Assembly (NCBI GenBank): GCA_965220195.1
Contig: CBDCPK010000005.1
Location: 3,029,875 to 3,093,874, forward strand
Direction: 5' to 3'
Source of the DNA: an uncultured Candidatus Binatia bacterium
Lineage (GTDB): Bacteria; Desulfobacterota; Binatia; Bin18
Length of the DNA stretch: 64,000 nt
The notes beneath the pieces are model-generated. The model had not been told where the DNA came from, did not search any database, and was given only the letters and a program-made list of their open reading frames with translations. The position numbers were made by a program, and so were the translations under genes. This document shows positions 5,634 through 45,670 of the stretch, one piece after another. The first letter of the stretch is position 1; each line of letters begins with the position of its first letter.

Positions 5634-5751
5634 GTTGAGCAATCTTCGCCCCTTCGGCGAGCTCAGGGTCGGTTTGGCTCCATCTCTGCTGAAGAAGCAC
5701 AGCGCAAGAGATTAAGTCTCCGTAAGGAGGACGCATCTAAAAGGAGACTCC

Positions 5752-6903: not shown

Positions 6904-7242
6904 ATGAAATTACCAAACGTGCGTCGGGCGCAGATCGAACGGGAAAAGATCATGGATTACCTGCTATCACCCGCCAATCCACGTAGCAGAGCCAAGGCAG
7001 ATTTTTTTCTGAGTTTCGGTTTCAGCAGAGATCACTGGGAAGAGTTCGCGAAGGCACTGAAAGCTCATGCCGCATCTTATGAGGTCGCCCGAGTTGTAGA
7101 GACCGCATACGGTCCACGCTATCATGTGGACGGCGCGCTGGAGACACCGGACGGGCGCAATCCGGTCGTAAGGACCGTCTGGCAAACCGACCAGGGAAGT
7201 GCATATCCCAGACTCATTACAGCGTACCCGCACAGGAGGTGA
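6904..7242 (+). CDS. DUF6883-like protein (putative toxin-antitoxin-like pair member)
   Basis: 112-aa ORF with RBS. The partner gene starts 4 nt after its stop. This sequence type is recalled as DUF6883. Confidence 0.45.
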   Translation: MKLPNVRRAQIEREKIMDYLLSPANPRSRAKADFFLSFGFSRDHWEEFAKALKAHAASYEVARVVETAYGPRYHVDGALETPDGRNPVVRTVWQTDQGSAYPRLITAYPHRR

Positions 7243-7245
7243 GAA

Positions 7246-7488
7246 GTGTTCAAGGAACATGAGCAGATCGTGCTTACCGCTGAGGTGTTTGGTGATGAGG
7301 GAGAAGCACTAAAACCGGGCGACGTGGGCACACTCATCCACATCCACCCCAATGAAGAAGCCGCCGTGGTGGAGTTCCTCTCGCTGGATGGCGGAACAGT
7401 GGCTCTCGCTACGGTGTTGCCGTCACAGATGCGTCCGGTGACGGGTGCTGACCTCACTCATGCCCGAACGGTTACGATGGCGGCCTAA
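7246..7488 (+). CDS. DUF4926-like small protein
   Basis: GTG start after a CAGGAGG RBS. 80 aa. Usual genetic partner of DUF6883. Confidence 0.45.
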   Translation: MFKEHEQIVLTAEVFGDEGEALKPGDVGTLIHIHPNEEAAVVEFLSLDGGTVALATVLPSQMRPVTGADLTHARTVTMAA

Positions 7489-29223: not shown

Positions 29224-29311
29224 GGAGGGATGGCCGAGCGGTTGAAGGCGCCGGTCTTGAAAATCGGTAGAGTCCAAAAGGCTCTCGTGGGTTCGAATCC
29301 CACTCCCTCCG
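29224..29311 (+). tRNA. tRNA-Ser (anticodon UGA)
   Basis: Acceptor stem GGAGGGA/TCCCTCC. D-arm GCCGAGCGGTTGAAGGC. Anticodon loop CTTGAAA. Long variable arm. T-arm GTGGGTTCGAATCCCAC. Discriminator G. Confidence 0.85.
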
Positions 29312-29413
29312 CGTCCCCTTGATTCCCTTTGTTCCCGCCCGTTTGCCCCAGCGCCCAACGATTGGTCAGGGAAGGGAATGTGATAATGTTAATATCAAGA
29401 GAGAGGAGTAGGG

Positions 29414-30462: not shown

Positions 30463-32871
30463 ATGCAGAAGACCCGTCTCAGCGAAAGCGATGTCCGCGC
30501 CAAGTATATTACGCCAGCCCTGCATCAGGCCGGCTGGGACGAGGCGCAGATTCGGCGCGAGGTCAGCTTCACCAAGGGCCGCATTATCGTGCGCGGCAAG
30601 CTGGTCAGCCGGGGTGAGGGCAAGCAGGCCGATTACGTCCTGCACTACAAGCCCAACCTCCCCATTGCGCTGATTGAAGCCAAGGACAACATGCACGCGG
30701 TTGGTGATGGCATGCAGCAGGCCCTGGGCTATGCCGAGACGCTGCATATCCCCTTTGTTTTTTCCTCCAACGGCGAGGGTTTTGTGTTCCACGACCGGAC
30801 CGGCCTGAGCCCTGAGCGGGAAACCACCCTCAGCCTGGACGCCTTTCCCGCGCCGGCCGAGCTGTGGGAGCGCTATCGTGCCTGGAAGGACCTGACACCA
30901 GAGGCCGAGTCCGTTGTTTCGCAGGACTATTTCAGCGACGGCGGCGGGAAGACCCCGCGCTACTATCAGGTCAACGCCATCAACGCCGCCATTGAGGCTA
31001 TTGCCAAGGGCCGCGAGCGCCTCCTGCTGGTCATGGCTACCGGAACGGGCAAGACCTATACCGCCTTTCAGATCATCTGGCGGTTGTGGAAGGCGGGCGG
31101 TAAAAAGCGCATTCTGTTTCTGGCCGACCGCAATGTGCTGATTGACCAGACGATGGTCAACGACTTCCGGCCTTTCGGTCCGGCCATGGCCAAGCTGTCG
31201 CCCAGGGCCGGGACCATCGAGCGCGCGGACGGTGCCTCCGAGGACCTGAGCGCCGCGATTGACCGCAGGCGGCGGATTGACACCTCGTATGAAATCTATC
31301 TCGGCCTGTACCAGGCCCTGACCGGGCCGGAGGACCGTCAGAAAGTCTTTCAACAGTTTTCGCCCGGCTTCTTCGACCTGATTGTGATTGACGAGTGCCA
31401 CCGCGGCAGCGCGGCCGAGGATTCGGCCTGGCGGGAAATCCTGGACTATTTCTCGTCCGCCACCCACATTGGTCTGACGGCCACGCCCAAGGAAACGGCC
31501 TATGTGTCCAACATCGAATACTTTGGCGAGCCGGTCTATACCTACTCGCTCAAACAGGGCATCCACGACGGATTTCTGGCCCCCTACAAAGTCATCAAGG
31601 TGCATATCGACCGCGACGTAGAGGGCTACCGACCCGAATCCGGCCAGTTGGACCGGGACGGGCACGAGGTCGAGGACCGCCTCTACAACACCAAGGATTT
31701 TGACCGCAATCTGGTATTGGACGAACGGACCAAGCTGGTGGCCCGCAAGATCACCCAATTCCTGAAGGAAAGCGGCGACCGCTTCCAGAAGACGATTGTC
31801 TTCTGCGTTGACCGGGAGCACGCGGCCCGGATGCGCCAGGCCCTCATCAACGAGAACGCCGCCCTGGTAGGCGAGAATCACCGCTATGTCATGCGGATCA
31901 CCGGCGGCGACACCGAGGGGCAGGCTCAACTGGACAACTTCATTGACCCGGAATCCCGATACCCCGTATTGGTCACCACTTCGCGTTTGCTCTCGACCGG
32001 GGTGGATATCCAGACCTGCCGGCTCATCGTGCTTGACCGGGAGGTGGGCTCCATGACCGAGTTCAAGCAGATTGTCGGTCGCGGCACCCGTGTGCACGAA
32101 GACACACGCAAGTTCTACTTTACGCTGATGGATTTTCGGGGCGCGACCGGTCATTTTGCCGACCCGGACTTTGACGGCGAGCCGGTGCAGATATACGAAC
32201 CCGGCGAGGACGATCCCATCACGCCGCCCGACGACGAAACAACGCCCCCGCAACCGGGCGAGGATGAGACGATTGTAGATGGTCTGCCACCCGATAGGCA
32301 GAAACCCCGCAAGATATATGTGGATAGTGTGAGCGCCGGCATCGTTGCCGAGCGGGTTGAGTATCTGGACCAATACGGCAAGCTGGTCACCGAGTCCTTA
32401 CGTGACTTTACCCGAAAGGCGCTGAAAAAGCGCTTTGCCAGCCTGGACGATTTTCTCCGGCGCTGGAAAGCGGCCGAACGCAAGCAGGCCATTCTTGAGG
32501 AATTGGCTGCCGAGGGGCTGGCGCTCGACACGATTGCCCAGGAACTCGGCAAGGACCTCGACCCTTTTGACCTGATTTGCCATGTAGCTTTTGACGCCAA
32601 GCCGCTGACCCGGCGCGAACGGGCTGAAAACGTCAAGAAGCGCGACGTGTTCGCCAAGTACGGAGACCGGGCCCGCACCGTGCTCGACGCATTACTCGCC
32701 AAGTATGCCGACGAGGGCGTGCTGAATCTGGACGATACCAACGTGCTGCGCATCCCACCCTTGAGCAACCTGGGCACCCCGCTGCAGCTTCTTAAGGCCT
32801 TTGGCGGCAAGGGAAGGTTCGTCCAGGCCGTTCACGATCTGCAAGCCGAGCTGTATAGGGAGAGCGCGTAA
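30463..32871 (+). CDS. hsdR: Type I restriction enzyme R subunit (HsdR)
   Basis: The N-terminal SESDTRAKYITPALHQAGW motif is classic for HsdR. Walker A GTGKT and DECH box (VIDECHRGS). Helicase C domain. Confidence 0.9.
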   Translation: MQKTRLSESDVRAKYITPALHQAGWDEAQIRREVSFTKGRIIVRGKLVSRGEGKQADYVLHYKPNLPIALIEAKDNMHAVGDGMQQALGYAETLHIPFVFSSNGEGFVFHDRTGLSPERETTLSLDAFPAPAELWERYRAWKDLTPEAESVVSQDYFSDGGGKTPRYYQVNAINAAIEAIAKGRERLLLVMATGTGKTYTAFQIIWRLWKAGGKKRILFLADRNVLIDQTMVNDFRPFGPAMAKLSPRAGTIERADGASEDLSAAIDRRRRIDTSYEIYLGLYQALTGPEDRQKVFQQFSPGFFDLIVIDECHRGSAAEDSAWREILDYFSSATHIGLTATPKETAYVSNIEYFGEPVYTYSLKQGIHDGFLAPYKVIKVHIDRDVEGYRPESGQLDRDGHEVEDRLYNTKDFDRNLVLDERTKLVARKITQFLKESGDRFQKTIVFCVDREHAARMRQALINENAALVGENHRYVMRITGGDTEGQAQLDNFIDPESRYPVLVTTSRLLSTGVDIQTCRLIVLDREVGSMTEFKQIVGRGTRVHEDTRKFYFTLMDFRGATGHFADPDFDGEPVQIYEPGEDDPITPPDDETTPPQPGEDETIVDGLPPDRQKPRKIYVDSVSAGIVAERVEYLDQYGKLVTESLRDFTRKALKKRFASLDDFLRRWKAAERKQAILEELAAEGLALDTIAQELGKDLDPFDLICHVAFDAKPLTRRERAENVKKRDVFAKYGDRARTVLDALLAKYADEGVLNLDDTNVLRIPPLSNLGTPLQLLKAFGGKGRFVQAVHDLQAELYRESA

Positions 32872-32874: not shown

Positions 32875-34335
32875 ATGTCCGTTCGCACTCTGGTCAAATC
32901 CATTCAGGACATCATGCGCCAGGACACGGGCGTGGACGGTGACGCCCAGCGTATCAGTCAGTTGTGCTGGATGTTCTTTCTCAAGATCATTGACGACCAG
33001 GACCAGGAAATGGAGATGGAGAGGGAGGGGGAGGGCTACACGTCCCCTATACCCGAGCAGTTTCAATGGCGGACCTGGGCGGCCGACCCCGAGGGCATGA
33101 CCGGTGAGGAACTGTTGAACTTTATCAACGCCGACTTGTTCCCGTCGCTGAAGAACCTGGAAATTGACCAGGCAGGAGCCCGTAGCCGCGTTGTGCGCGA
33201 TGTTTTTGAGGATGCCTACAACTACATGAAGTCCGGCCAGTTGGTGCGTCAGGTGGTCAACAAGATCAACGATATTGACTTTAATGACCTGACCGAGCGT
33301 CAGCATTTCGGCGACATCTACGAGCAGATTCTCAACGACCTGCAATCCGCGGGCAATGCCGGCGAGTATTATACGCCCCGCGCCGTAACCGCCTTTATGG
33401 TTGATCGTATCGACCCCAAGCCGGACGAGACCGTATTCGACCCGGCCTGCGGGACCGGTGGCTTTTTGACCTGTGCACTGCGTCACATGCGTGAGCGTTA
33501 TGCCAAACGGCCCGAAGACGAACCGACCATACAGGCTGCCCTGCGTGCCGTTGAAAAGAAGCAGCTCCCCCACATGCTGTGCGTGACCAATATGCTGCTG
33601 CACGGCGTTGAAGACCCGAGCTTTGTGCGCCACGACAACACCCTGGCGCGGCCCTACATTAGCTGGGAGCAAAAGCACCGGGTGGACATTGTCCTGACCA
33701 ACCCGCCTTTTGGCGGCAGGGAGGAAGACGGTATTGAGGCCAACTTTCCGAAAGAGTTTCGGACCAAGGAGACCGCAGACCTGTTCCTGGCTCTTATTAT
33801 CCGCCTGCTGAAGCCGGGTGGGCGCGCCGCCGTGGTGCTGCCCGACGGCTCGCTGTTTGGCGAGGGCGTCAAAACGCGGCTCAAGGAGCACTTGATGGAG
33901 GAGTGCAACCTGCATACCATCGTGCGCCTGCCCAATTCCGTGTTCCGGCCGTATGCCTCTATCGGCACCAATCTGCTGTTCTTTGAGAAGGGCGCACCAA
34001 CCACTGACATCTGGTTCTACGAGCACCGCGTGCCCGCAGGTCAGAAAGCCTATTCCATGACCAGGCCGATCCGGCTGGACCATTTACAGCCCTGCATCGA
34101 CTGGTGGGGTGGGGCGGAGCGCACGGACCGCACGGAAACGGAGCGCGCCTGGAAGGTGACCGCCGAAGCCGTCAAGGCGCGCGGCTACAACCTGGACATC
34201 AAAAACCCGCATACCCAGGCAGACGACCTCGGCGACCCGCAAGAACTGCTGGCCAAGCTCAGCGCAACCGAGGCCGAGGTCACGGACTTGCGGGACCAGT
34301 TAAAGGCGATATTGGCCGAGGCGTTGCTGCGGTAA
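32875..34335 (+). CDS. hsdM: Type I restriction-modification N6-adenine DNA methyltransferase M subunit (HsdM)
   Basis: NPPFGG catalytic motif, SAM-binding FDPACGTGGFL, and the HsdM N-terminal domain. Starts 4 nt after the hsdR stop. Confidence 0.9.
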   Translation: MSVRTLVKSIQDIMRQDTGVDGDAQRISQLCWMFFLKIIDDQDQEMEMEREGEGYTSPIPEQFQWRTWAADPEGMTGEELLNFINADLFPSLKNLEIDQAGARSRVVRDVFEDAYNYMKSGQLVRQVVNKINDIDFNDLTERQHFGDIYEQILNDLQSAGNAGEYYTPRAVTAFMVDRIDPKPDETVFDPACGTGGFLTCALRHMRERYAKRPEDEPTIQAALRAVEKKQLPHMLCVTNMLLHGVEDPSFVRHDNTLARPYISWEQKHRVDIVLTNPPFGGREEDGIEANFPKEFRTKETADLFLALIIRLLKPGGRAAVVLPDGSLFGEGVKTRLKEHLMEECNLHTIVRLPNSVFRPYASIGTNLLFFEKGAPTTDIWFYEHRVPAGQKAYSMTRPIRLDHLQPCIDWWGGAERTDRTETERAWKVTAEAVKARGYNLDIKNPHTQADDLGDPQELLAKLSATEAEVTDLRDQLKAILAEALLR

Positions 34336-34395
34336 GGGCCGCTTGCAATCCACCGTTTCAGCCCCTCTCTCGCTCTCCTCTGTGGCCTTCATATC

Positions 34396-34456
34396 CCCTC
34401 CTTGGAGGGGTGGCCCGAAGGGCCGGGGTGGGTTCCTTTTCGCATCACACGTCCCG
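34396..34456. repeat. Third (inverted) copy of the 43-bp GGAACCCACCCC unit fused to the GTGGGTTCCTTTTCGCATCACACGTCC element
   Basis: CCCCTCCTTGGAGGGGTGGCCCGAAGGGCCGGGGTGGGTTCC is the reverse complement of 3819-3861. It is followed by a near copy of 3955-3985. Confidence 0.55.
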
Positions 34457-34593
34457 AGAGGAGAGAAGAGCACAGGCCTGTCCTTTACCACCGTATTGGA
34501 ACGCCTCCGGCTCATCCAACCTGCGGAACGAGTTTGATGCATACGGCTATTCCCCCTAAATTTGACTGATCCTAGTCATAAGGGGAATCACTC

Positions 34594-34890
34594 TTGAATA
34601 AATCCCGTCAAGCCAGGCAGACCGGCCCGGCACGGACTTCCGGCTGGAAGCTGGGAGAGGCCAAGGCAAAGTTCAGTGAACTCGTTCGCCTTGCCGCGTC
34701 CGGGCAGCCGCAACGGGTCACGGTTCACGGGAAGGACGCCGTGGTCATCGTCGCGGCAGACACATTCGAAGCCCTCCAGGCGCGGGAGCAATCGGGCAGC
34801 TTACACGAACTCCTGTCCCAATCTCCGCTGAGCCGTATCACGTTCGGTGGAGATAGTGTTCGGAGTCCGGTCCGTGAGTGTGCGTTGTGA
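34594..34890 (+). CDS. Phd/YefM-family antitoxin-like protein
   Basis: WKLGEAKAKFSELVR...VTVHGKDAVVIV matches the Phd/YefM N-terminal fold. TTG start after an AAGGGGAA RBS. Confidence 0.55.
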   Translation: MNKSRQARQTGPARTSGWKLGEAKAKFSELVRLAASGQPQRVTVHGKDAVVIVAADTFEALQAREQSGSLHELLSQSPLSRITFGGDSVRSPVRECAL

Positions 34891-34936
34891 ATAGCGCTTG
34901 CCTCTCTCGTCTTTCTATTTCACAATGGTCTCCATG

Positions 34937-35149
34937 AACACGGTCACTGTTCGCCTGGATGCAGAGCTTGCCCTTGAGTTGACAAAACTCGCGAAACGTA
35001 CGGGACGCCCCAAAAGCGAGTTGATTCGCCGTGCGTTACGCCGCCAACTGGCATTGGCTCGTTTTGAAGAACTGCGTCAGGGTGTCGCGCCGTTCGCAGA
35101 GGCCAGAGGGTGGCTTACGGATGAAGACGTTTTCCAGAACGTCTCATGA
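34937..35149 (+). CDS. Ribbon-helix-helix (CopG-like) antitoxin
   Basis: MNTVTVRLDAELALELTKLAKRTGRPKSELIRRAL is a typical RHH. Its stop overlaps the vapC start. Confidence 0.6.
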   Translation, partial: NTVTVRLDAELALELTKLAKRTGRPKSELIRRALRRQLALARFEELRQGVAPFAEARGWLTDEDVFQNVS

Positions 35150-35541
35150 GGGTATTCTTGGACACCAACGTGCTGGTTGCCGCCTACGCGACGCGCGGAC
35201 TTTGTGAGGATGTCTTTCGAGTCATATTAGCAGAACACGAACTCGTCGTGAGCGAGACCGTGCTCGCCGAATTTGAGCGCGTCCTGGTGCAGAAGCTCCG
35301 CTTGCCTCTTCCGCAAGTAAAAACACTGTCATCTTTCTTACGAAGACAGGCCGACATCGTTGACCCTGTCGCTCCCTCCGTGTGGCCGAAACGTGACCCG
35401 GACGACCGATGGGTCGTTGCGGCAGCGATAGAGGGAGGCGTTGATTTTCTTGTCACTGGTGATCGTGACCTGCTTGAAGTCGCTGCTGAAGTGCCCGTTT
35501 CCATCGTCTCGCCGCGAACGTTCTGGGAGCAACTTCGTTAG
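35146..35541 (+). CDS. vapC: VapC-family PIN-domain toxin
   Basis: MRVFLDTNVLVAA N-terminus, with conserved Asp/Glu positions later in the sequence. Confidence 0.8.
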   Translation: MRVFLDTNVLVAAYATRGLCEDVFRVILAEHELVVSETVLAEFERVLVQKLRLPLPQVKTLSSFLRRQADIVDPVAPSVWPKRDPDDRWVVAAAIEGGVDFLVTGDRDLLEVAAEVPVSIVSPRTFWEQLR

Positions 35542-35678
35542 TCCGCAGGGTGGCTGAGGAAAATGTCAGGTGAAGCTTCGCTCACTTGGCCTACGAGGCT
35601 GTTGGCCGGTTACACTCCTAAAGCATTGCCAAAAAGTAGCCTATACGCTACTGGAGGGTATGCCTGGGAGATGAGCAT

Positions 35679-35999
35679 ATGGCAAGGCGCACCATTCCGT
35701 ACGAAGACCTCCTCTATCAGGACCTCCAAGACCCCGAAGAGGCTGTGGCGTATCTGAACGCTGCCCTGGACGACGAATATGCACAGGGGGCAGAGGTCTT
35801 TCTCTTAGCCCTCCGTGATGTTGCCAAGGCTCGTGGTATGAAACAACTCGCTCAGGACACGCAACTCAGCCGGGAGAGCTTGTACCGAACATTGTCCCGT
35901 AAGGGGAACCCTCGCTTTTCCACGCTTGAGGCCGTGTTGAAGAGTCTTGGGCTGAAACTGAGTGTGACGGTGAAGCCCCCGGAAACAAAGGCTGCCTGA
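35679..35999 (+). CDS. HigA-family addiction-module antidote protein (orphan)
   Basis: DPEEAVAYLNAALDD...LLALRDVAKARGM...SRESLYRTLS matches the TIGR02684-like antidote family. No killer partner is detected upstream. Confidence 0.6.
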   Translation: MARRTIPYEDLLYQDLQDPEEAVAYLNAALDDEYAQGAEVFLLALRDVAKARGMKQLAQDTQLSRESLYRTLSRKGNPRFSTLEAVLKSLGLKLSVTVKPPETKAA

Positions 36000-36005
36000 C
36001 CTCCG

Positions 36006-36065
36006 CGTTACCTCTTCAATGAATGCCGAACACCTGCTCACCCACTTCGACCGCATAGCCGACGC
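36006..36065 (+). repeat. Direct repeat 1: duplicated 5' end of hsdS (about 50 bp plus GCCGACGC)
   Basis: CGTTACCTCTTCAATGAATGCCGAACACCTGCTCACCCACTTCGACCGC matches 36804-36852 with two mismatches. Confidence 0.7.
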
Positions 36066-36109
36066 GGCGCAGGTGACGCTTCGCTCGCCTAGGCTACGAG
36101 GCTGCCGAT

Positions 36110-36604
36110 ATGACTAAACCACGCGTGTATGTTGAGACCACGATTCCCAGCTTTTACCACGAAGAGCGCTCTGCTCCCGACATCGTAGCGCGCCGGGAAT
36201 GGACGCGGCGATGGTGGGACAGTGCGCCCGAGCACTACGAGCTTGTCACCAGCCCGGCCGTTCTGGACGAGCTGGCCCGCGGGATCCCGGAACGCAGTGA
36301 GAGACGCCTGTCGCTGGTGCGCAATCTCCCGCTCCTGCCCGTCGAATTGGCTATCACCGAGATCGTCCAAGGGTATATCAGGCACAAGCTGATGCCGGCG
36401 GATCCTGGTGGTGACGCCTTGCACTTGGCGCTCGCCTCCTACCACAAATGCGACTTTCTGGTAACGTGGAATTGTCGACATCTGGCAAACGCGAACAAGT
36501 TTGGCCATATCCGCCGTGTGAATACGATGCTCGGCCTTTTTATTCCGGCGCTCGTGACCCCGTTGGAACTCTTTGGAGGGAGCGATGAAACAGAATCAGA
36601 GTGA
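36110..36604 (+). CDS. PIN-like domain protein (putative VapC-like toxin)
   Basis: C-terminal DALHLALASYHKCDFLVTWNCRHL resembles the PIN C-terminal motif. The N-terminus (VYVETT) has Glu in the first acidic position. Confidence 0.5.
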   Translation: MTKPRVYVETTIPSFYHEERSAPDIVARREWTRRWWDSAPEHYELVTSPAVLDELARGIPERSERRLSLVRNLPLLPVELAITEIVQGYIRHKLMPADPGGDALHLALASYHKCDFLVTWNCRHLANANKFGHIRRVNTMLGLFIPALVTPLELFGGSDETESE

Positions 36605-36782
36605 CCCGGTGATTGATGAGATTCGAGAAGTGCGGCACCGCATCTCGGCGTGCTTTGGCCATGACCCCACACGGTTGGTAGCCTTCTACATGGAAATGCA
36701 GAAGCAGTACCAGGACCGGCTGATTGAGACCGCAAAGAGTTCTCAGGATAAGGATAACCAGCAATCTGACACGGCGCTTTAA
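36585..36782 (+). CDS. Small partner protein of the PIN-like gene (putative antitoxin), 65 aa
   Basis: Overlaps the PIN-like gene's 3' end by 20 nt. Charged helical protein. Confidence 0.4.
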   Translation: MKQNQSDPVIDEIREVRHRISACFGHDPTRLVAFYMEMQKQYQDRLIETAKSSQDKDNQQSDTAL

Positions 36783-36803
36783 CGCGCGAACAGCTCGCCG
36801 CAT

Positions 36804-36863
36804 CGTTACCCCTTCAATGAACGCCGAACACCTGCTCACCCACTTCGACCGCCTCGCCGACGC
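36804..36863 (+). repeat. Direct repeat 2: authentic 5' end of hsdS
   Basis: Partner of 36006-36065. Contains the hsdS start codon at 36817. Confidence 0.7.
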
Positions 36864-38532
36864 ACCGGACGCTATTCCGCGCTTGCGCCGGTTTATTCTT
36901 GATCTGGCGGTACGCGGCAAGCTGGTGGAGCAGGACCCGGAGGATGAGCCGGCGGGGGAGCTGTTGAAGCGGATTACGCCTGAGAAGCAACGACTTGTGG
37001 CTGAGGGGAAATTCAAATCGCTAGATACTACCGAATTCGATAATGGAGCAGAGAATGTTTCATTCTCAATCCCTGCTAATTGGGTGTGGTGTCGCCTGGA
37101 TGATATAGCAGCAATTGCCAGAGGCGGGTCGCCACGACCCATCAAAGCTTATCTCACGGATGACAGGGACGGCATCAACTGGATAAAGATCGGCGATTCA
37201 GAGAGAGGCAGTATCTACATAAACGAGACGAAAGAAAAAATTCGGCCTGACGGCCTAAAGAAATCAAGAATGGTCTTCCCCAATGATCTGATTCTATCGA
37301 ACTCTATGAGTTTTGGTTATCCATATATCTTGAATATTCAAGGATGCATACACGACGGATGGTTAGTCATACGAACTCCAGATGGTTTGTTGGATAAACT
37401 GTTTCTCTACAATTTGCTCCTTTCAAGCCATTCTAGGAACACGTTTTCAAATGCTGCGGCAGGGGCAGTAGTACAAAATCTAAATGCGGATAAGGTGCGG
37501 AGGCTTTCCATCCCCCTCCCACCCCTTGCCGAACAACACCGCATCGTCGCCAAAGTTGATGAACTGATGGCCCTGTGTGACCGGCTGGAAACAGCGCGGG
37601 AGGAGCGGGAAGCGACACGCAACCGACTGGCAACGGCAAGCCTCGCCCGCCTCAACGCACCCGACCCCGACCCGGCGGTCTTTCAGAACCACACGGCCTT
37701 TGCCCTCAACAACCTCACTCCGCTTACTACCCGTCCAGACCAGATCAAGGCGCTACGTCAGACCATCCTTAACTTGGCGGCACGGGGGAAGCTGGTGGAG
37801 CAGGACCCGGAGGATGAACCGGCGGGGGAACTGTTGAGAAAAGTAGCTGAGACCCGGAAGGCTCTAGTCGCTGAACGTAAAATGAAGCGTTCAAAGGACC
37901 TGCCGCCAGTAGAGGATCAAGAGATTAAGTTTGGTATACCAGCAGGATGGGCCGTTACTCGTATGGGCGTCGCGTATGACGTTCGTGACGGAACTCATGA
38001 CTCACCGAGGTACGTTGATGAGGGGTATCCACTTATCACTAGCAAAAACCTATCTTCCGGGTACTTATCCTTTGACGAGACGAAATTGATTAGCGAAGAG
38101 GACTACATTAAAATCTCGCAGCGATCTGCAGTCGTAAAAGGCGATATACTTTTGGCGATGATTGGGAGCATCGGAAATCCAGTGATCGTCGATACTGATC
38201 AACCATTCGCAATCAAAAATGTCGCCCTGCTAAAATATTTTGATCCAGACTATTCTAATCCCAGATTTTTACGGTTTTTCCTTCTAAATGCTGCTAACGA
38301 GATGAAGGCTCTTGCTGCCGGTGGTTTGCAACCATTCGTCTCACTTAGTTTCCTGCGAAACTATCCTCTTGCTCTTCCGCCGCTTGCCGAACAACACCGC
38401 ATTGTTGCCAAGGTTGATGAACTGATGGCGGTGTGTGACCGGTTGGAGGCGAGCCTTGCTGGGGGTGAGGAGACGCGGGGGCGGTTGGTGGAAGCGGTGT
38501 TACATGAGGCGTTGGCGCCAGAGTTGCACTGA
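36817..38532 (+). CDS. hsdS: Type I restriction-modification specificity subunit (HsdS)
   Basis: Two target-recognition domains. The duplicated conserved regions LAxRGKLVEQDPEDEPAGELL and LPPLAEQHRIVAKVDELMAxCDRLE each occur twice. Confidence 0.85.
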   Translation: MNAEHLLTHFDRLADAPDAIPRLRRFILDLAVRGKLVEQDPEDEPAGELLKRITPEKQRLVAEGKFKSLDTTEFDNGAENVSFSIPANWVWCRLDDIAAIARGGSPRPIKAYLTDDRDGINWIKIGDSERGSIYINETKEKIRPDGLKKSRMVFPNDLILSNSMSFGYPYILNIQGCIHDGWLVIRTPDGLLDKLFLYNLLLSSHSRNTFSNAAAGAVVQNLNADKVRRLSIPLPPLAEQHRIVAKVDELMALCDRLETAREEREATRNRLATASLARLNAPDPDPAVFQNHTAFALNNLTPLTTRPDQIKALRQTILNLAARGKLVEQDPEDEPAGELLRKVAETRKALVAERKMKRSKDLPPVEDQEIKFGIPAGWAVTRMGVAYDVRDGTHDSPRYVDEGYPLITSKNLSSGYLSFDETKLISEEDYIKISQRSAVVKGDILLAMIGSIGNPVIVDTDQPFAIKNVALLKYFDPDYSNPRFLRFFLLNAANEMKALAAGGLQPFVSLSFLRNYPLALPPLAEQHRIVAKVDELMAVCDRLEASLAGGEETRGRLVEAVLHEALAPELH

Positions 38533-38601
38533 CGATATTCTTAACTTAGTTACATGCGAATTATCCGTCTACGAACGATAGCGGATTGTAGAAGGTGATG
38601 G

Positions 38602-39894
38602 ATGGAACTAGAGAAGATAAAAAGCGTGGATGAGTACCTACGCTCTTTACAATCTTTGCGCAATGCACATGCCTACAGGTATAGGGGACAATCTAACAGT
38701 GCATGGCCGGTATGCTCCTCATGGGCTCGCGCATTTAAAGGCCAAACACATTGGGACTGCCTTTCCTACCATTCAGACCTGATACGCGATTTTCCTTCCT
38801 TTGATTCTCTACCTGGATACGTAAGAGACCTTTCCAGAGAGAATCCGAGTCTTCTTACAGATTGGGATAAAGTAGCAATTATACAGCATTATGGAGGTGA
38901 GACTGGAAAAAAGACTATACTGACCGACTTTACTATAAGGCCGCTTATTGCCCTATGGTTCGCTTGTCAAGAAAAGGAGCACCGGAAAGAAGACGGAAAA
39001 GTCTTTGCTGTTTCAATTGATATTTTAGACGAGGTAGGGCTCCCGCATATCGATGATTATATTCGGGGCAACCATTCAGATTTGTACACTCTCGATAGAT
39101 CGTACCTATTTCCTACAAGTTTTCAGTACAATCCCAGAGGCAATACCAGAAGTCCTCACAAAAGCTATGTTTCTCGGATCGATAAGCAAGCATCATCCTT
39201 TGTCCTAGGGATTGAGAGGGTTGAGGAGGCTAAATGCAAATCAGTCATAATTGAGGCCAGCAGCAAGAAGCGAATACTCAATGAGTTGCGCTACTTTTTC
39301 TCCATATCAGAGAAAGCGCTCATGGATGATTGGTATGCTCTTGGCGAGGCTGTAGCGAACGGCAAGGAGGTGTCTACCGACGGTTTTACCGATGCTGAGT
39401 ACTATAACTTAGCGAAGGATATTAGTTTGTTACATAGACAACCGAGGGCTGGGCGTCCTTATTTTGAGGAAGCCCTCCAATACTGGCATTCTCAGAGAGA
39501 TCGTAGAGAGGCAATGGTTAAAGCCAGTTACTCTGATGACGCCGACCGAGAAAGAGTGCGTTGTTACATGAATCAAGCAGGAGCGCACTATTACATGAAT
39601 ACGGCTTGGACGATCTACTGTCTTGAGGATGCAGATGAGGGGGAGACACGGCGTGCTTGTGGTTATGCCCACAAGGGTTTTGATATGGCTAGCTATGATC
39701 CACAGCGTCCCGGATTCGCTGTAGTCTATGCCCTTTGTCTACTGAGATTGAATAAGGAAAAAGCCGCATACGATTTATGCAGGAGAGAACTCGATTTCTA
39801 CGAGCACTCTGCCCCCGCCTTCTGTACGGGCAAGAATTCTCCTTCTATTGATAAATTGAGAAGGATAGTGAACATTTATGAGGCTCACCATTAG
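38602..39894 (+). CDS. FRG-domain protein
   Basis: The N-terminal YRYRGQSNSAWPV motif is the FRG signature. Low G+C. GAAGGTGA RBS. Confidence 0.65.
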   Translation: MELEKIKSVDEYLRSLQSLRNAHAYRYRGQSNSAWPVCSSWARAFKGQTHWDCLSYHSDLIRDFPSFDSLPGYVRDLSRENPSLLTDWDKVAIIQHYGGETGKKTILTDFTIRPLIALWFACQEKEHRKEDGKVFAVSIDILDEVGLPHIDDYIRGNHSDLYTLDRSYLFPTSFQYNPRGNTRSPHKSYVSRIDKQASSFVLGIERVEEAKCKSVIIEASSKKRILNELRYFFSISEKALMDDWYALGEAVANGKEVSTDGFTDAEYYNLAKDISLLHRQPRAGRPYFEEALQYWHSQRDRREAMVKASYSDDADRERVRCYMNQAGAHYYMNTAWTIYCLEDADEGETRRACGYAHKGFDMASYDPQRPGFAVVYALCLLRLNKEKAAYDLCRRELDFYEHSAPAFCTGKNSPSIDKLRRIVNIYEAHH

Positions 39895-40183: not shown

Positions 40184-40516
40184 GTGAGGCCCGCCTTCTT
40201 TCATCCCAAAGCGAGAGACATCTTGCGGACTTTTCCAGAAACAGTACGAAAAGAGTTGGGCAAGGCTATTATAGATTTGCAGAAAGGGGCTTCTGTAGGC
40301 CCGCCCCTCTCTCGGCCTATGCCGTCCGTGGCTCTAGGGACAAATGAACTCAGAATCCGTGATCGTACGGGAATTTATCGAACCTTTTACTATACAAAGG
40401 CAGCGCGTGGGGTCTTGATCTTTCACGCGTTTATTAAAAAGACGCAGAAAACGCCGTTACGAGAGATTGAGACCGGAAGGAAACGGCTTAAGGAGATGCT
40501 CCATGAACTCAGCTAA
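40184..40516 (+). CDS. higB: HigB-like toxin (RelE/ParE superfamily, Gp49-like)
   Basis: LRIRDRTGIYRTFYYTKAARGVLIFHAFIKKTQK matches the Gp49/HigB family. GTG start. Confidence 0.65.
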   Translation: MRPAFFHPKARDILRTFPETVRKELGKAIIDLQKGASVGPPLSRPMPSVALGTNELRIRDRTGIYRTFYYTKAARGVLIFHAFIKKTQKTPLREIETGRKRLKEMLHELS

Positions 40517-40802
40517 ACCTGTCGTTGCAGAAGACGCGACTGCGCTGGCGGAAATTTTAGGACTGACTCCCATTGATGGAGCGGAAATCCAGTTGCGGAG
40601 CGACTTGAATGACAAAATTATTGAGGTTGTGGAGAAAAGCGGACTCACCCACGCTCAGGTTGCCAAACTGGCTCGGACTTCCCGGTCCCGTATGACGGCA
40701 ATTCTCAACCGTAATACCCAAGATGTCTCTACTGACCTGATGCTCCGCATCATGGCCGGCTTAGGCTATCGGGCCAAACTGACCTTCTCACGGGTGGCGT
40801 AG
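40503..40802 (+). CDS. higA: HigA-like XRE-family HTH antitoxin
   Basis: HTH motif LTHAQVAKLARTSRSRMTAIL. ATGA overlap with the higB stop. Confidence 0.7.
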   Translation: MNSAKPVVAEDATALAEILGLTPIDGAEIQLRSDLNDKIIEVVEKSGLTHAQVAKLARTSRSRMTAILNRNTQDVSTDLMLRIMAGLGYRAKLTFSRVA

Positions 40803-40986
40803 CCGACTTCTTCAGCCCCGTAGCCTCCGTCTCATCCGACCTCTGGAACTCAGCGGGTTCGTTGCCTGATATGGACTAGGCGGAAGATGGCACATCTAAG
40901 AAGTTGACAAGCTAATTTGAGACGCATATGGTTTTGCTGTGACTGACAGAGTTGCCTGAGCGACTCGCTGAAGTCAGTCGCCTTCA

Positions 40987-41020
40987 ACGCTAACTTTTGG
41001 TGGTTAGCGTTTTTCTTTTT
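40987..41020 (+). terminator. Rho-independent terminator (8-bp stem ACGCTAAC/GTTAGCGT plus T-run)
   Basis: Perfect 8-bp stem with an 8-nt loop, followed by TTTTTCTTTTT. The same bases encode the Lys-rich C-terminal tail of the convergent minus-strand PIN gene. Confidence 0.5.
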
Positions 41021-41292
41021 ACGGATTTTCCCGGTCGGTTTTTTCTTGTCTTTTTGTCATCCAGGTCGGTCAGGAGCCTGTCGATTTCGTCGTCTGTCCG
41101 TCCGTGGAGCCGGACGAGACGCGGACGGCGCAACACGGACGAATACTCGTTGAGCAGGTCGTCCGACATGAGGTAAAGGAGGTCGCCATCAAGCATGGCG
41201 TCCAGTATCCGTGCTGGGGGACTGCTCGAATCCGCGCCGATCAGCCCCGAAACGATGACATTGGTGTCGATAATACAAGCCTTCGGCGTCAT
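40990..41292 (-). CDS. PIN-domain toxin (VapC-like)
   Basis: ACIIDTNVIVSGL PIN N-terminal signature. Basic C-terminal tail. Confidence 0.7.
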   Translation of the reverse strand: MTPKACIIDTNVIVSGLIGADSSSPPARILDAMLDGDLLYLMSDDLLNEYSSVLRRPRLVRLHGRTDDEIDRLLTDLDDKKTRKNRPGKSVKRKTLTTKS

Positions 41293-41334
41293 CGGCTCTC
41301 TTCCGCACCTCTCGAACTTGGCCGCTGACGCCGC

Positions 41335-41580
41335 TCAGCGCGACTGCTCGTCACGAAAACGTCTTGTTTCCTCGACTGCCAGGGCCATCGCGTCGGGAGC
41401 GTTCAATCCAAACTGCGCTCGCGCCTTGGCGACAATCTCCTTGGCGGTATCGTAGGGTCGGATCCCTCTCAGTTCCAGGCTTTCCTCGATGATTGAAGCC
41501 ATGGAACGATTCTGCCGGGCCGCCGCTTCCTTCAGTGCCCGGTGTGTCCGGTCGGCTAAACTGATGGTCAGGCGGGGCAT
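41335..41580 (-). CDS. Ribbon-helix-helix antitoxin partnering the PIN toxin
   Basis: MPRLTISLADRTHRALKEAAARQNRSMASIIEESL is an RHH fold. Located upstream of the toxin on the same strand. Confidence 0.6.
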   Translation of the reverse strand: MPRLTISLADRTHRALKEAAARQNRSMASIIEESLELRGIRPYDTAKEIVAKARAQFGLNAPDAMALAVEETRRFRDEQSR

Positions 41581-41702
41581 GAGGATACACTCCTGTTCAT
41601 AAGCGCCGATTCAATGCTGCAAGCACCATAACACCATACCGACAATCTACATGTCCCACTCTTCAAAGGGAACTCTCCCCCTCGCGAGTCTCGGGGATGT
41701 CG

Positions 41703-41745
41703 GATTACGCCCCCGGCTCATCCAACCTATAGGGCTATGGGCGAC
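41703..41745 (+). repeat. 45-bp direct repeat, copy b (GGGGATGTCGGATTACGCC...)
   Basis: Partner of 40081-40125. Confidence 0.55.
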
Positions 41746-41861
41746 CCGACTCCCCTCTCGGGACGTGTAATACATATTAGGCTGTGACCGATGGAGTAGG
41801 TCCCTCTGAAAGCGGAGTCAACAGGGGCTGGGGGAGAGCGACGGGGTTCATTGCATCGTAT

Positions 41862-44510
41862 TCAACGTCGTTTCTCGGTAAACTCTTGTCGGATTTCTGT
41901 CACGGTATCCCTGATCTCCGCAGGTAGGGGTTCAAGTTCTTCGCCCAATTCTTCCCGTACAGCGTGCCAGAGCGGCTCCATTGGCTCGGCCAGTCCGGCT
42001 TCCTCCATTATCTGCTTGACGCGCGGGCCGTGGCCGGCGGCGACGGCCCGGATCAACGACTCTGTTAAACTAGGCCATTCCTGTTCCTGGAAGTCGCCGC
42101 CGATGCGTAGCGCGTGTTCGATCTGGTCCAGCGCTTCTGTCCATTGGCCACGATGAGCCAAGACATCGGAGAGCGTTTGAAAAGTGCTCGGATTCTTCGG
42201 CCCCAGTTCTATCGCGCGGCGGGCGCATTCCTCGGCCTCCAGCAGACGCGCGGCGTCATTCTGGTCAAGAATCGCTGTTGCCAGAATACGCCATGCTTCA
42301 TCATACGTCGGTGCGATATCCGTCGCCCTTCTACAACCAGCTTCCGCTTCATCGTGCCTTCCAAGTACGTTCGATAACCGACCGCCAGCTATCAGCCATT
42401 TTGCGACTGGACGACGTAGTTCCATCGGGTCGTTTGAGCGTACATAATCCGAGGAACGTTGAAAAATGGCGGCTACGTCTTCGTACCGTTTCAGGCCACC
42501 AATGCTAATGGCTTTTCTGCCTAGCGCTCTAATGGCTACATCACGCAGTTCCTTTGGGTCCTCCGTGCGGACATACTCGGTGGTCCGCTCCCAAGCAGCG
42601 GTGGCTTTTTCGTTGCGTCCCAGCTTGGCAAGAAGGTCACCCTTGGCGTTGAACGCCTCGGCGGCCAATTGGCGTAAGTCCACAGAGTCATCTGGATGGA
42701 CGTATTCCGTGACACGCTGCCAAGCAGCGATAGCCTCTTCATGACGACCCAATTTGGTGAGAGCCATGCTGTTGGTCCCGTGAGCCCAGGCGGCCATGTT
42801 GCGCAATTCTACCGAGTCATCCGGACGGATATATTCCGATGCCTGCTCCCATGTGGCGATGGCGTCTTCGTGCCGCTCCAGTTGGAAAAAAGCAAGGCCC
42901 TTGCTTGCCAATGCCGCGACGACTACGCCGCGTAATTCTGGCGAACCAGACGGACTCGTCTGCTCCAAGACACGATCGGAGGCGGCTATGGCGTCTTTGA
43001 AACGGCCCTCTTCAATCAGCGTGACGCTGCGTTCCACCCACTCGACAAGACGCTCTAGGCTTGCTTTATCTTGGCCTGCAAACGCCTCCTGAATTTTCTC
43101 AACGACCGGCGCGTTCGGACTGATAAAGTTCTTAGCAAGATCGAGCGCCTCGCGTTGCCAGTCCTCCCGCCCTTTGAAGTCCGTATCTCCAGCTACGTAG
43201 CCAGCCAGGATGGTGAGCCAATCGGACGCTTCTCCGCCGTGTGAGCCGTTCACTCGTAACGCCGACAGTACCGCCGGATACATCATCCGCATTCCGGATG
43301 GACCGAAAAGATCGTGAAGGAAGGCGACGAGTCGCTCTAAGCGGTGCCGGCCTGCACGCGAGAAGCGTAGCAGATAGTAGATGTTGTAAAATCGATCGCT
43401 GACTTCATATCGTATCCGCTTTGCTCCTCGTAGCCGGATCTCTTTTGCATAGCCCTTTTCCATAAGTTGCTTGAGTTGGGCGCTAGCGTGCGAGGAGTTT
43501 AGATTCGCGGCGTCGGCAACCTCCCTCGCCAGCATCGGCTTCCATCCCTCCGCGAGACAGTGAAATACTTTGCGGGACTGACCCGGTAATTCCTCGATCC
43601 GGGCTTTGAAATAAGGCGTCTGTTCGTCGATGAGCCGTTCCAGATCCTCAAAGGCAGAGCCGAGCGGCGATTCGATCAGGAGCCGACAGGCAAGAACCAG
43701 CAACCGCGGGTTCCCGCCCGTCAGCCGACGCAGGGTCTCCAGCCGGCCACGTTCATGACGCAGGGTTTCCGCAATTCCTGGCTTGCCGTCGCAAGCCGCG
43801 AGTGTTTCAAGTATGCGGAGAGTCTCTTCCTGCCCCAGACCTTCGAGCAGGAAGAGCCGGAAGAACTCGTAAAACGGCTCGCCGTGTCCTCGGATGGCTT
43901 CGAAGACGGCGTTAGCAGAACCGACCAACAGGATATTCGGACATTCAATCAGACTGGCCCGCAACGCGTGAACTTCGCGCTCGTCGCGCAACTGCTCGAA
44001 GACGGCGTCGAGGTTCTCGACGAACAGGATCAACCGTTTGCCGCTTGCCCGGCAAAAGTCCATAAGCGCTGCGAGCGCGTACGCGGCGAGCCGTTCCGTG
44101 TCTCTTTCGTCCTGGGCTAGAGCGTTGGCTCTGTCCTCCCACTGCGAGTCCTCGGTGGCGCGGGTCAGATGGCGCAGAGCGACAAGCCAGAAGTCCGCCA
44201 AGTTACCGACATCGTAGCTTTCCTCGTAGAACGGGACGGGTTGCCAGTTCGCGGCAAGGTCGGGCGACTCTCCAACTGCGTGCAGAAACCGTAGCCCAAG
44301 GGTAGTTTTTCCCATTCCGCGCGGGCCGATGAGCAGCATATGCTGACACGGTCGTCCGCGCTGCTGCTCGCGAATCAGGCGGAGCATCTCTGCGAGAGTT
44401 TTTTTACGAGCGACGAACGACGCCTTCAACTCGTCAGGAGTAAGCTGGGCCGGGTTGTACAGACGCTGGCGGATCATGACGCGACACTCCCGTGGTATTT
44501 CCGCCACCAT
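41862..44510 (-). CDS. STAND-like P-loop NTPase with winged-helix and C-terminal TPR array (882 aa)
   Basis: Walker A GPRGMGKTT. Walker B hhhhD(VEN)LD. Winged-helix region. At least 8 TPR-like repeats with a recurring A..W/Y..A pattern. An alternative start at 44477 gives a 4-bp overlap with the upstream gene. Confidence 0.7.
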   Translation of the reverse strand: MVAEIPRECRVMIRQRLYNPAQLTPDELKASFVARKKTLAEMLRLIREQQRGRPCQHMLLIGPRGMGKTTLGLRFLHAVGESPDLAANWQPVPFYEESYDVGNLADFWLVALRHLTRATEDSQWEDRANALAQDERDTERLAAYALAALMDFCRASGKRLILFVENLDAVFEQLRDEREVHALRASLIECPNILLVGSANAVFEAIRGHGEPFYEFFRLFLLEGLGQEETLRILETLAACDGKPGIAETLRHERGRLETLRRLTGGNPRLLVLACRLLIESPLGSAFEDLERLIDEQTPYFKARIEELPGQSRKVFHCLAEGWKPMLAREVADAANLNSSHASAQLKQLMEKGYAKEIRLRGAKRIRYEVSDRFYNIYYLLRFSRAGRHRLERLVAFLHDLFGPSGMRMMYPAVLSALRVNGSHGGEASDWLTILAGYVAGDTDFKGREDWQREALDLAKNFISPNAPVVEKIQEAFAGQDKASLERLVEWVERSVTLIEEGRFKDAIAASDRVLEQTSPSGSPELRGVVVAALASKGLAFFQLERHEDAIATWEQASEYIRPDDSVELRNMAAWAHGTNSMALTKLGRHEEAIAAWQRVTEYVHPDDSVDLRQLAAEAFNAKGDLLAKLGRNEKATAAWERTTEYVRTEDPKELRDVAIRALGRKAISIGGLKRYEDVAAIFQRSSDYVRSNDPMELRRPVAKWLIAGGRLSNVLGRHDEAEAGCRRATDIAPTYDEAWRILATAILDQNDAARLLEAEECARRAIELGPKNPSTFQTLSDVLAHRGQWTEALDQIEHALRIGGDFQEQEWPSLTESLIRAVAAGHGPRVKQIMEEAGLAEPMEPLWHAVREELGEELEPLPAEIRDTVTEIRQEFTEKRR

Positions 44511-45670
44511 TCCCGCAAGAGATTCGAGCGGAATTTCAGGTGACTGTCTTCCTGTTTTACGTAACCGTCGGCCTCCAGGTCGCGGAGCACGGACTGGAAC
44601 GTTTGCTCGTTGCGCTGTCGCAACTCTTCGAGTTCCGCGAGAGCCACACCGTCCTCTCGCCGGCAGACGCGGCTCAGGATATCACGTGCCGCTTCGTGTT
44701 CGTTCTCGTCAAATGCAATTTCGAGGCGCGCTGCATAATGGTCCAGATGGGCGGTGCCACTGGCTCCCGCCAGACGTTCCGCGAAACACCGCTCAATCAC
44801 TTCCAACGAAACGTGAGAAGCTTCGCCTCTGCAAGCATCGCGAAGCGCCGAGAAGAAAAGCTGAACATGGTACGGAACGGGCTCCCGCAGCAGGTCCAGG
44901 ATATGCGTGATAGCTTTTTCGTCGAGAGGAAAACTAGAATCACCGCCCAGCCCTTTCAGAAATTCGACAGCGGTCGGCCTGTTCCACGAGTCCAGGCGGA
45001 ACGGAGAGAGATCGTTAATCAGCCCTGAAAGGCCCGCGCGGCGCAGGACTCCTTCAAGTCCGATCGATCCGCCGACAAGTGTACGGACCCTGGTGCGCAA
45101 TTCTGGCGCTTGGCGCCAAGACCGAAGCCTGGACAGTAGTAATTCAGCATCATGTTTCCGCTCCTCATTCCGCAGCATCCGCGAAAGGAGGAGCGGTAGT
45201 TCATCAATGATGATCAGAAGATTCCCGCCGGTGTCCGGCAGGCTCGTCAGGCGCGCCGTGAGTTGGTCCGCAGCGTGGTCCCACTCACGGCCAATCGCCC
45301 GTCTGAGTTCGACACGCACTATGCCAGTATCAACACTGGCGGACAGGCGTCCAAAGACACCCTTGATGGCGTTCGAGAATGGAATCGCCTCGAAACGGCT
45401 TCGATATTGAGGATTGGCTGCCAGAGCAGCGATAATCGCCGCCATGCAGTCCGCCGGGTCGTCCCCACTTTCAACATCCACATAGATGACATCCCAGTTC
45501 TCGCGCGGCGCGCGGCGGAGCTCCAGCATTAAGCTGGTCTTGCCCACCCGCCTGGGGGCGAGCATTAGAATGTGCTCTCCTTGTTCCAGCTTTTCCCAGA
45601 GGCGGGCTATCTCGTAATCTCGTCCATAGAGGTCGTCGCCGACGACTGCCTGGCCAGTGACGTTGCGCAT
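44474..45670 (-). CDS. AAA+/ATPase_2-type P-loop ATPase with C-terminal winged-helix-like region (398 aa)
   Basis: Walker A APRRVGKTS. Walker B LLIIIDE. Same family architecture as the N-terminal half of the downstream gene. AGGAGA RBS and an AT-rich promoter with a TTGCCAAAAA duplication. Confidence 0.7.
   Translation of the reverse strand: MRNVTGQAVVGDDLYGRDYEIARLWEKLEQGEHILMLAPRRVGKTSLMLELRRAPRENWDVIYVDVESGDDPADCMAAIIAALAANPQYRSRFEAIPFSNAIKGVFGRLSASVDTGIVRVELRRAIGREWDHAADQLTARLTSLPDTGGNLLIIIDELPLLLSRMLRNEERKHDAELLLSRLRSWRQAPELRTRVRTLVGGSIGLEGVLRRAGLSGLINDLSPFRLDSWNRPTAVEFLKGLGGDSSFPLDEKAITHILDLLREPVPYHVQLFFSALRDACRGEASHVSLEVIERCFAERLAGASGTAHLDHYAARLEIAFDENEHEAARDILSRVCRREDGVALAELEELRQRNEQTFQSVLRDLEADGYVKQEDSHLKFRSNLLREWWRKYHGSVAS

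Follow-up and report, generated by a model that had tools for sequence, protein, structure and literature searches.

The window analysed here is a 64-kb stretch (64,000 nt) from the genome of an uncultured Candidatus Binatia bacterium (GenBank assembly GCA_965220195.1, contig CBDCPK010000005.1). It carries a Type I restriction-modification operon, hsdR-hsdM-hsdS, in which the 5' end of the specificity gene hsdS is present twice, with a PIN-like two-gene module between the copies. Gene identities were assigned from Pfam and NCBIfam/TIGR profile matches on the window proteins, and HsdR, HsdM and HsdS of an EcoEI-like system were all recognised. The restriction subunit gene hsdR (30463-32871) matches Pfam ResIII (2.5e-44), EcoEI_R_C (3e-33) and HSDR_N; the methyltransferase subunit gene hsdM (32875-34335) matches N6_Mtase (3.5e-73) and HsdM_N; and hsdS (36817-38532) encodes an intact 571-aa specificity subunit, matched by Methylase_S in two stretches, with two target-recognition domains and internal conserved-region repeats (repeat families D2 and D3). 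All genes of the locus, from hsdR through an FRG-domain gene behind hsdS, lie on the + strand, as do the remnants between them.

The interval between hsdM and hsdS holds several small genes. A VapBC toxin-antitoxin pair is formed by a ribbon-helix-helix (RHH) antitoxin gene (34934-35149; Pfam RHH_1 2.4e-11), whose 71-aa product is encoded by the same gene in the related loci L166, L169 and L170, and by the PIN toxin gene vapC (35146-35541; Pfam PIN_3 1.9e-14; TIGR00305). It is followed by a 58-nt element (35544-35601) whose last 35 nt recur at 36070-36104 (repeat family D4), and by a higA-like antitoxin gene of the HI1420-downstream type (35679-35999; Pfam dnstrm_HI1420 5.2e-22; TIGR02684), which has no toxin partner. 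The first hsdS copy begins directly behind higA.

The duplicated hsdS start and the module between its copies

Base-by-base alignment of 36006-36062 with 36804-36860 gives 53 identical positions out of 57, with a longest perfect run of 30 nt and a spacing of 798 bp. The repeat search of the window reported a longer pair in the same orientation (36006-36088 and 36804-36886, 82% over 83 nt); in the alignment, both copies diverge into unrelated sequence beyond 36062 and 36860. The 36-nt core of the repeat, ATGAAYGCCGAACACCTGCTCACCCACTTCGACCGC, occurs exactly twice in the 64-kb window, with no occurrence expected from 100 shuffles. An earlier note on this DNA had described such a direct duplication of the hsdS 5' end, 798 bp apart, and had taken the upstream copy as dead and the downstream copy as the real start; both statements hold.

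The first arm (36006-36062), delimited like the second by repeat search, shuffles and alignment, consists of a dead hsdS leader and the first 44 nt of hsdS. It opens a stranded open reading frame (ORF) of 32 codons (36019-36117; translation MNAEHLLTHFDRIADAAQVTLRSPRLRGCRYD followed by a stop) that preserves the hsdS start context and has no hsdS body behind it. The TAA stop of this ORF overlaps the ATG of the PIN-like gene (ATGACTAA), the ORF ending 5 nt past the first base of that ATG. The second arm (36804-36860) is the functional hsdS start.

According to the earlier note, only the PIN-like gene and its overlapping partner lie between the copies. The genes are as described, but two further remnants share the interval with them. 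One, at the left joint of hsdS fragment and module, is the 35-nt partial second copy of the 58-nt element (36070-36104, copying 35567-35601). The other is a 31-nt hsdS leader of the relE-remnant type described below (36786-36816). The window contains, in this way, two interleaved repeat pairs, one of the 58-nt element and one of the hsdS 5' end. The downstream leader reaches 18-19 nt beyond the repeat, and this stretch (GCGAACAGCTCGCCGCATC) has no counterpart at the upstream copy, where the 3' end of higA occupies the leader position. The 13 nt before the two window ATGs are 12/13 identical to each other and only 9-10/13 identical to those of orthologues.

The first gene of the module (36110-36604) encodes a 164-aa putative toxin with a Pfam PIN match of 5.7e-6 (27.4 bits against a cut-off of 23.6); NCBIfam, PDB and PADLOC sequence searches gave no usable match for it, and an exact-sequence look-up returned no record. 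The second gene (36585-36782) overlaps the end of the first by 20 nt, with its GGAGG Shine-Dalgarno sequence inside the PIN-like gene, and encodes a 65-aa partner without a match in Pfam, NCBIfam, PADLOC or PDB. There are 7418 homologues of the PIN-like protein, with 77-95% identity among the top 120. The protein was followed in 80 genomic loci (66-98% identity) from many phyla, among them Binatia, Nitrospirota, Planctomycetota, Acidobacteriota, Gemmatimonadota, Proteobacteria, Chloroflexota and Cyanobacteria, and in 78 of these loci tblastn places the partner directly downstream with the same short overlap. DNA homology to the module elsewhere is confined to ~36105-36785, with unrelated flanks (L001 and L161-L163, 89-94%); the PIN-like pair is therefore a discrete inserted module, as the earlier note had proposed.

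In 25 homologues of the PIN-like protein, E9, E54, D102, D115 and N121 are invariant, a pattern that would fit a PIN site in which the fourth acid is replaced or shifted. The AlphaFold model of the protein, built with 25 close homologues, is poor (pLDDT, the predicted local distance difference test score, 58). The module resembles a VapBC pair in having a small partner tightly linked in one operon, and departs from it in that the partner lies downstream and shows no match to a DNA-binding family (RHH, AbrB, Phd, helix-turn-helix (HTH)). From its sequence and gene order, the pair would be toxin-antitoxin-like, a putative PIN-like nuclease with a conserved downstream partner.

Close relatives share a module leader of ~45 nt, TTGTCC-N18-TATCT(T/G)-N6-ATG, which resembles a weak promoter from which a leaderless transcript would start. 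Comparison with these relatives indicates that the window leader lacks the TATCTT part through a 13-nt deletion. Because this -10-like box is lost and the stop of the fragment ORF overlaps the PIN-like ATG, the PIN-like gene is most likely expressed by read-through from the hsd operon together with termination-reinitiation coupling to the 32-codon ORF. A promoter and terminator scan of 34200-38700 gave nothing above shuffle expectation.

Related operons and the origin of the two copies

Only two of the 80 module-bearing loci (L002 and L003) place the module in a homologous hsd operon; closer operons were located through HsdM homologues of 89-92% identity. In the cassette-free operon L169, the order is vapBC, 58-nt element, higA and hsdS. 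Window positions 34858-36069 are collinear with L169 6578-7790 (92.9% over 1213 nt), a block that ends at nt 51 of hsdS, exactly where the window switches to the 35-nt remnant and the module and where L169 continues into the hsdS body. L003 likewise has higA followed directly by an intact hsdS, its module lying elsewhere, right after hsdM. The upstream window copy has the same higA-type leader as these two loci, and the related operons without the cassette for which the earlier note had suggested looking therefore exist: L169 and L003 carry the same junction uninterrupted.

The downstream copy belongs to another junction type. In L165, L167 and L168, a relB-like gene and, behind it, the opening ~25 codons of a relE-like gene precede a single-copy hsdS, and the similarity of these loci to the window begins exactly at 36786, 31 nt before the downstream ATG. 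The leader GCGAACAGCYCGCCGCATCGT..CTTCA of these three loci is the 5' remnant of that relE-like gene. The 13 nt before the downstream ATG had also been considered as a module trailer, a reading rejected on the alignment with L165, which identifies them as part of the relE-remnant leader.

The left joint recurs in L002, an independent metagenome-assembled genome from another study. There, higA is followed by ~37 codons of hsdS (~111 nt), the 58-nt element, the module and hsdS, with the same left joint as in the window. Window positions 36070-36978 align with L002 3923-4825, and the window corresponds to L002 minus 82 nt (L002 3841-3922) and minus 13 nt of the module leader. Since L002 retains ~111 nt at the same joint, the 55-nt copy of the window is a shortened remnant. 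In L002 the joint falls between GGCAAGCTCGTAG and GTTGGGTGAGGAG, where the sequence shares an imperfect microhomology with the end of vapC (AGCAACTTCGTTAG).

The duplicated hsdS start is thus probably the scar of an out-of-register recombination between two operon variants, each carrying a different cargo. Each copy is collinear with a different single-copy variant (L169 on one side, L165, L167 and L168 on the other), and the joint between them is non-homologous. The differing leaders, a higA end upstream and a relE remnant downstream, imply that the two copies descend from two operon variants; a target duplication made in place by insertion would not yield such a two-leader pattern.

From the anatomy of the window, the two parental junction types, the L002 joint and the cassette-free relatives, we infer the following order of events. 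Variant 1, of the L169 type, would have been vapBC - 58-nt element - higA - hsdS, and variant 2, of the L165 type, would have had a relB/relE-remnant leader before hsdS. In one variant-2 lineage, the PIN-like module may have replaced the interior of relB-relE, giving vapBC - 58-nt element - module - relE remnant - hsdS. An illegitimate joint on the left would then have connected hsdS codon ~37 of variant 1 with the vapC-end/58-nt element of variant 2, possibly guided by the imperfect microhomology AAGCTCGTAG / AACTTCGTTAG, and the exchange would have been completed on the right through ordinary homology, within hsdS or past it. Such a product would automatically contain both cargos in tandem and both interleaved repeat pairs. 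Later, in the window lineage, a deletion of ~82 nt would have left ~51 of the ~111 nt of the stranded hsdS fragment, and the 13-nt deletion would have removed the -10-like box of the module. The right junction would have been reworked in one of the two lineages (window or L002), and the two hsdS starts of the window were probably homogenised in part by gene conversion.

Several observations weigh against this reconstruction. The sequence that could be reached yielded no example of the predicted second parent (vapBC - 58-nt element - module - relE remnant - hsdS, without higA), and this missing parent is the main gap in the recombination model. The microhomology at the joint is imperfect (10/13), and the assignment of the 58-nt element to the relB 5' region rests on a weak alignment. 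The right junctions differ, that of L002 being ~35 nt of module trailer with the small ORF running into the TAATG of hsdS and that of the window being the small-gene stop, CGC and the relE remnant, so that at least one further event is required or the two lineages are partly independent in origin. The residue at hsdS codon 13 (Ile or Leu) is not cleanly sorted by junction type; it had been considered as a marker of two lineages and was withdrawn, as L169 has Leu and breaks the pattern. Finally, all genomes compared are metagenome assemblies, those of the operon relatives from uncultured Binatia.

The first alternative is that the entire slot, between the 58-nt element and hsdS nt ~111 inclusive, was duplicated in tandem within one chromosome, after which differential loss or replacement of cargo would have left higA in copy 1 and the module in copy 2. 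The interleaved pattern of 58-nt element and hsdS 5' end, each followed by its second copy, is typical of the junction that such a duplication leaves, and higA and the module do occur together between hsdM and hsdS in L003. At least three events would be needed, however, whereas both junction types occur naturally as separate operons and a crossover between variants is a single step. Fresh copies, moreover, would not have differing leaders. This origin is considered unlikely.

The hsdM-hsdS junction and the module flanks at other loci

The setting of the duplication was examined in an HsdS N-terminus scan of 80 loci, 64 of which have both hsdM and hsdS. The hsdM stop overlaps the hsdS start (ATGA) in 39 of the 64, and an insert of 0.06-2 kb separates the two genes in 25. 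These inserts include MNT-HEPN pairs, Fic, DUF1016-like nucleases, DUF433/PIN-like pairs, VapC, GIY-YIG and DNA resembling repetitive extragenic palindromic (REP) repeats, and in L167 the slot holds an IS5-type insertion sequence (IS) element. Seven related operons carry seven different cargos. The hsdM-hsdS junction is a cargo hotspot in this operon family, and the overlap of the two genes means that an insertion sparing both cannot avoid duplicating or replacing one of their ends.

Stranded hsdS starts occur at other loci as well, namely in L107 (50 nt), L144 (62 nt) and L121/L123 (14 nt). L003 has a dead 50-nt hsdM 3' fragment after its module and a dead 95-nt hsdS 3' fragment after a second insert. 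Both dead copies are closer to the window alleles than the functional copies are, the pattern expected if the functional copies came in from another allele. The scars of L003 lie at 5757-5800, 6756-6805 and 10473-10567, and its second insert is a 287-aa ORF without a Pfam match.

The flanks of the module were also compared outside hsd operons, using 47 genomic loci with full flanks and 376 shifted control positions. Direct repeats bracket the module at 8 of the 47 loci and at 5 of the 376 controls, an enrichment of about tenfold (Fisher p = 1.1e-5). The L076 repeats each consist of the final 108 nt of a PTS-EIIA (phosphotransferase system) gene (4737-4844 and 5519-5626), those of L048 of the final 91 nt of the fumarase C gene (5842-5932 and 6678-6768), in both cases tight around the two module genes. 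Further bracketed loci are L017 (~5420-5780 and 6951-7310) and L035 (5452-5607 and 6670-6824). The brackets of these four loci, from unrelated phyla, are ends of housekeeping genes or intergenic DNA of 90-300+ nt, 92-97% identical. Three of the eight positive loci involve repeats of the REP type or resembling miniature inverted-repeat transposable elements (MITEs), and 39 of the 47 loci have no repeat.

Because repeat lengths and module end points vary, we read the bracketed loci outside hsd operons as products of anchor-mediated recombination and not of a dedicated insertion enzyme. A wider proposal, speculative and held with little confidence, is that the conserved opening of hsdS (~110 nt), like the ends of hsdM and of other conserved genes, acts as a portable homology arm, allowing recombinase-free exchange of cassettes at the junction. 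A stranded end would then serve as the arm for the next capture or loss, and the module (66-98% identical across at least 10 phyla, seemingly with its own promoter) would travel between genomes mainly on such anchors. If true, this would account for the roughly tenfold excess of duplicated local gene ends around the module.

The same bracketing bears on a true target-site duplication, in which the module or a helper enzyme would insert at staggered cuts tens to hundreds of bases apart. The excess over the controls and the tight repeats of L076 and L048 speak for it. In the window, however, the downstream copy has a leader that is absent upstream, and DNA foreign to the module lies between the repeats. 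Across the loci, repeat length (27-300+ nt), identity (84-100%) and module end points are all variable, most loci are repeat-free, three of the positives are REP/MITE-like, and no recombinase is present. The gene-end repeats are accounted for just as well by conserved neighbour genes that served as homology anchors. A target-site duplication is improbable. The earlier note had offered cassette insertion with target duplication or homologous capture as its two readings; the second comes close to the data, and the first fails on the downstream leader and on the lack of transposase, integrase and terminal repeats.

Particular kinds of mobile element were rejected on similar grounds. Within 26-46 kb of the window, no transposase or integrase is encoded, and neither an attC site nor inverted terminal repeats were found. 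A transposon with a target-site duplication does not fit a duplicated segment of ~111 nt in L002 and 55 nt in the window, nor a downstream leader that is absent from the empty-site junction. For an integron cassette, the imperfect inverted repeat at the cassette end and a tyrosine recombinase are missing, and the module flanks vary among loci.

Very improbable, too, is a working switch, in which RecA-dependent or slippage deletion between the hsdS starts would reversibly remove the module and maintain a mixed population. The repeats are direct and in frame and share the 30-nt perfect block, deletion between them would leave an intact L169-like higA-hsdS junction, and the window-specific 12/13 identity before both ATGs suggests gene conversion between the copies. 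Against this, excised variants with a hybrid junction were not seen, the two arms are 7% diverged, L002 retains the structure despite its longer repeat, which argues against frequent loss, and such a deletion would not be reversible. The excision that the earlier note had envisaged, restoring the higA-hsdS junction, is possible given the perfect in-frame block; nothing in the data shows its occurrence, and the cassette-free relatives look like parental variants and not like excision products.

An assembly artefact, namely a chimeric join of co-existing strain variants, deserves almost no credence: all sequences are metagenome assemblies and both parental variants could plausibly share one community, but a chimeric join at shared sequence gives one copy, not two with a unique joint, and the identical joint is present in the independently assembled L002.

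Known systems and further features of the locus

The scar of recombination between operon variants has close parallels. In type VI secretion system (T6SS) effector-immunity, Rhs and contact-dependent inhibition (CDI) arrays, orphan gene ends arise through one homologous anchor and one illegitimate end, which is the accepted model (Kirchberger et al. 2017, PMC5361080). As in the window, a conserved segment is the anchor, the incoming variant brings cargo and its own conserved end, the resident end is left dead, and arrays grow by repetition. Those systems strand 3' ends and immunity genes downstream, whereas the window strands a 5' end upstream, and the cargo of the window is unrelated to the function of its host operon.

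Single-crossover integration through short homology in E. coli yields duplications of 109-950 bp (Amarir-Bouhram et al. 2011, PMC3240628). This Campbell-type integration resembles the present case in its flanking duplication, and its size range fits both the original ~111 nt and the module flanks in other phyla. Homology-facilitated illegitimate recombination in its classical form usually deletes recipient DNA, whereas a duplication is seen here, with a mechanism that the anatomy suggests; duplication instead of deletion results because the illegitimate joint lies inside the anchor gene.

PIN-type toxin-antitoxin genes have been described inside Type I restriction-modification operons, in arrangements that vary between close relatives (Matelska et al., PMC5499597). 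The window agrees with that description in having PIN-type and other toxin-antitoxin genes among the hsd genes, in the same orientation and in an unconserved arrangement. The junction anatomy, in which stranded gene ends reveal the exchange of cargo, goes undescribed in that work, and the window also differs in a PIN-like module whose partner lies downstream and belongs to no described family. Phase-variable hsdS systems (pneumococcal ivr/tvr, Mycoplasma, Bacteroides shufflons) also contain extra partial hsdS copies that share conserved-region repeats. Those systems have inverted repeats, a dedicated recombinase and silent copies with target-recognition domains, and a shufflon was rejected here: the window repeats are direct, the fragment ends at codon 16 (37 in L002) without a recognition domain, and no recombinase is nearby.

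The locus is an ordinary scar of a well-documented type, and it is a new, well-resolved example of known processes and not of a new mechanism. It shows small toxin-antitoxin and defence cargo being shuffled into and between Type I operons without a mobile-element enzyme, with the ends of conserved operon genes as recombination anchors and dead fragments as a record of the exchange history. In annotation, a short hypothetical ORF with an hsdS-like beginning, or with an hsdM- or hsdS-like end, is to be regarded as a scar and not as a gene. The comparison also singles out the PIN-like two-gene module, which is uncharacterised and very widespread, as a candidate for experiments.

The origin of the 58-nt element can be stated only tentatively: a relB-like antitoxin gene may have left it as its leader and 5' remnant. 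At its start, the element aligns with what follows vapC in L166 and with what precedes relB in L165, and it stands natively after vapC in L169 and L166, in L169 inside the 1213-nt collinear block. Two other identities were considered. The first, the 3' end of a deleted upstream hsdS, was dropped, since it has only an 11-nt match (GGGTGAGGAGA), in another frame, behind it. For the second, a structured RNA or a REP hairpin, folding of the window and L002 copies is no better than that of shuffled sequence, and Rfam has no match. A core of the form GTCAGGNNA-MGCTTCGC-TNNCYTGAC is present at 35544-35601 and 36070-36104 of the window, at 3900-3957 of L002 and at 11937-11962 of L014, a Nitrospira locus. 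The L014 copy forms a perfect 9-bp hairpin (z = -2.2) in which both stem sides are changed relative to the Binatia copies, those of the window and L002 being degenerate. The short element could be a relB-leader remnant or a small palindromic repeat.

Upstream of vapBC lies an orphan Phd/YefM-type antitoxin gene (34594-34890; Pfam PhdYeFM_antitox 5.9e-11) without a toxin partner. In L003 an internally deleted VapC sits directly 3' of its orthologue, and in L166, L169 and L170 only the last ~40 nt of phd are kept. These remnants show stepwise decay of cargo in the slot, the toxin partner of the window phd having been lost.

GC-rich palindromic REP-like repeats of the CCCTCTCCCC..GGAGAGGG type occur in the hsdM-hsdS interval, at 34380-34440 of the window, 3330-3400 of L002 and 9290-9380 of L165, and the same interval of L003 and L166 contains MITE-like elements of ~170 nt with a GTCATTCCCGCGAAAGCGGGAATC core. 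The locus with the most similar HsdM (L164, 1683-6144; 92%) carries hsdM, VapBC, an HTH-peptidase M78 gene, a DUF3368 PIN-like gene, a TIR-domain gene and a PIN pair, with no hsdS visible before a transporter gene.

The closest cassette-free relatives, L169 (7740-8624) and L170 (9386-10258), have a half-size hsdS of ~290 aa with one target-recognition domain, presumably made by recombination between internal conserved repeats. The window hsdS has the same internal repeats (37516-37589 with 38374-38447, and 36895-36967 with 37765-37837).

A tRNA-Ser(TGA) gene lies at 29224-29312, 1.1 kb upstream of hsdR; its 3' end is not repeated elsewhere in the window, and no integrase was seen. Directly after hsdS, the FRG-domain gene (38602-39894) matches the PADLOC candidate defence family PDC-S15 (7e-20) and lies in a patch of low GC content (0.46 against ~0.58). 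In L169 and L170 the gene is missing and its place is taken by others, such as a KAP NTPase. Further downstream (40467-45670) lie an HTH_37 gene and, on the minus strand, a truncated PIN_3 gene (40990-41292) and a pair of TPR-repeat ATPases of the AAA_16/STAND type (41862-44510 and 44474-45670), a neighbourhood that looks like a defence island.

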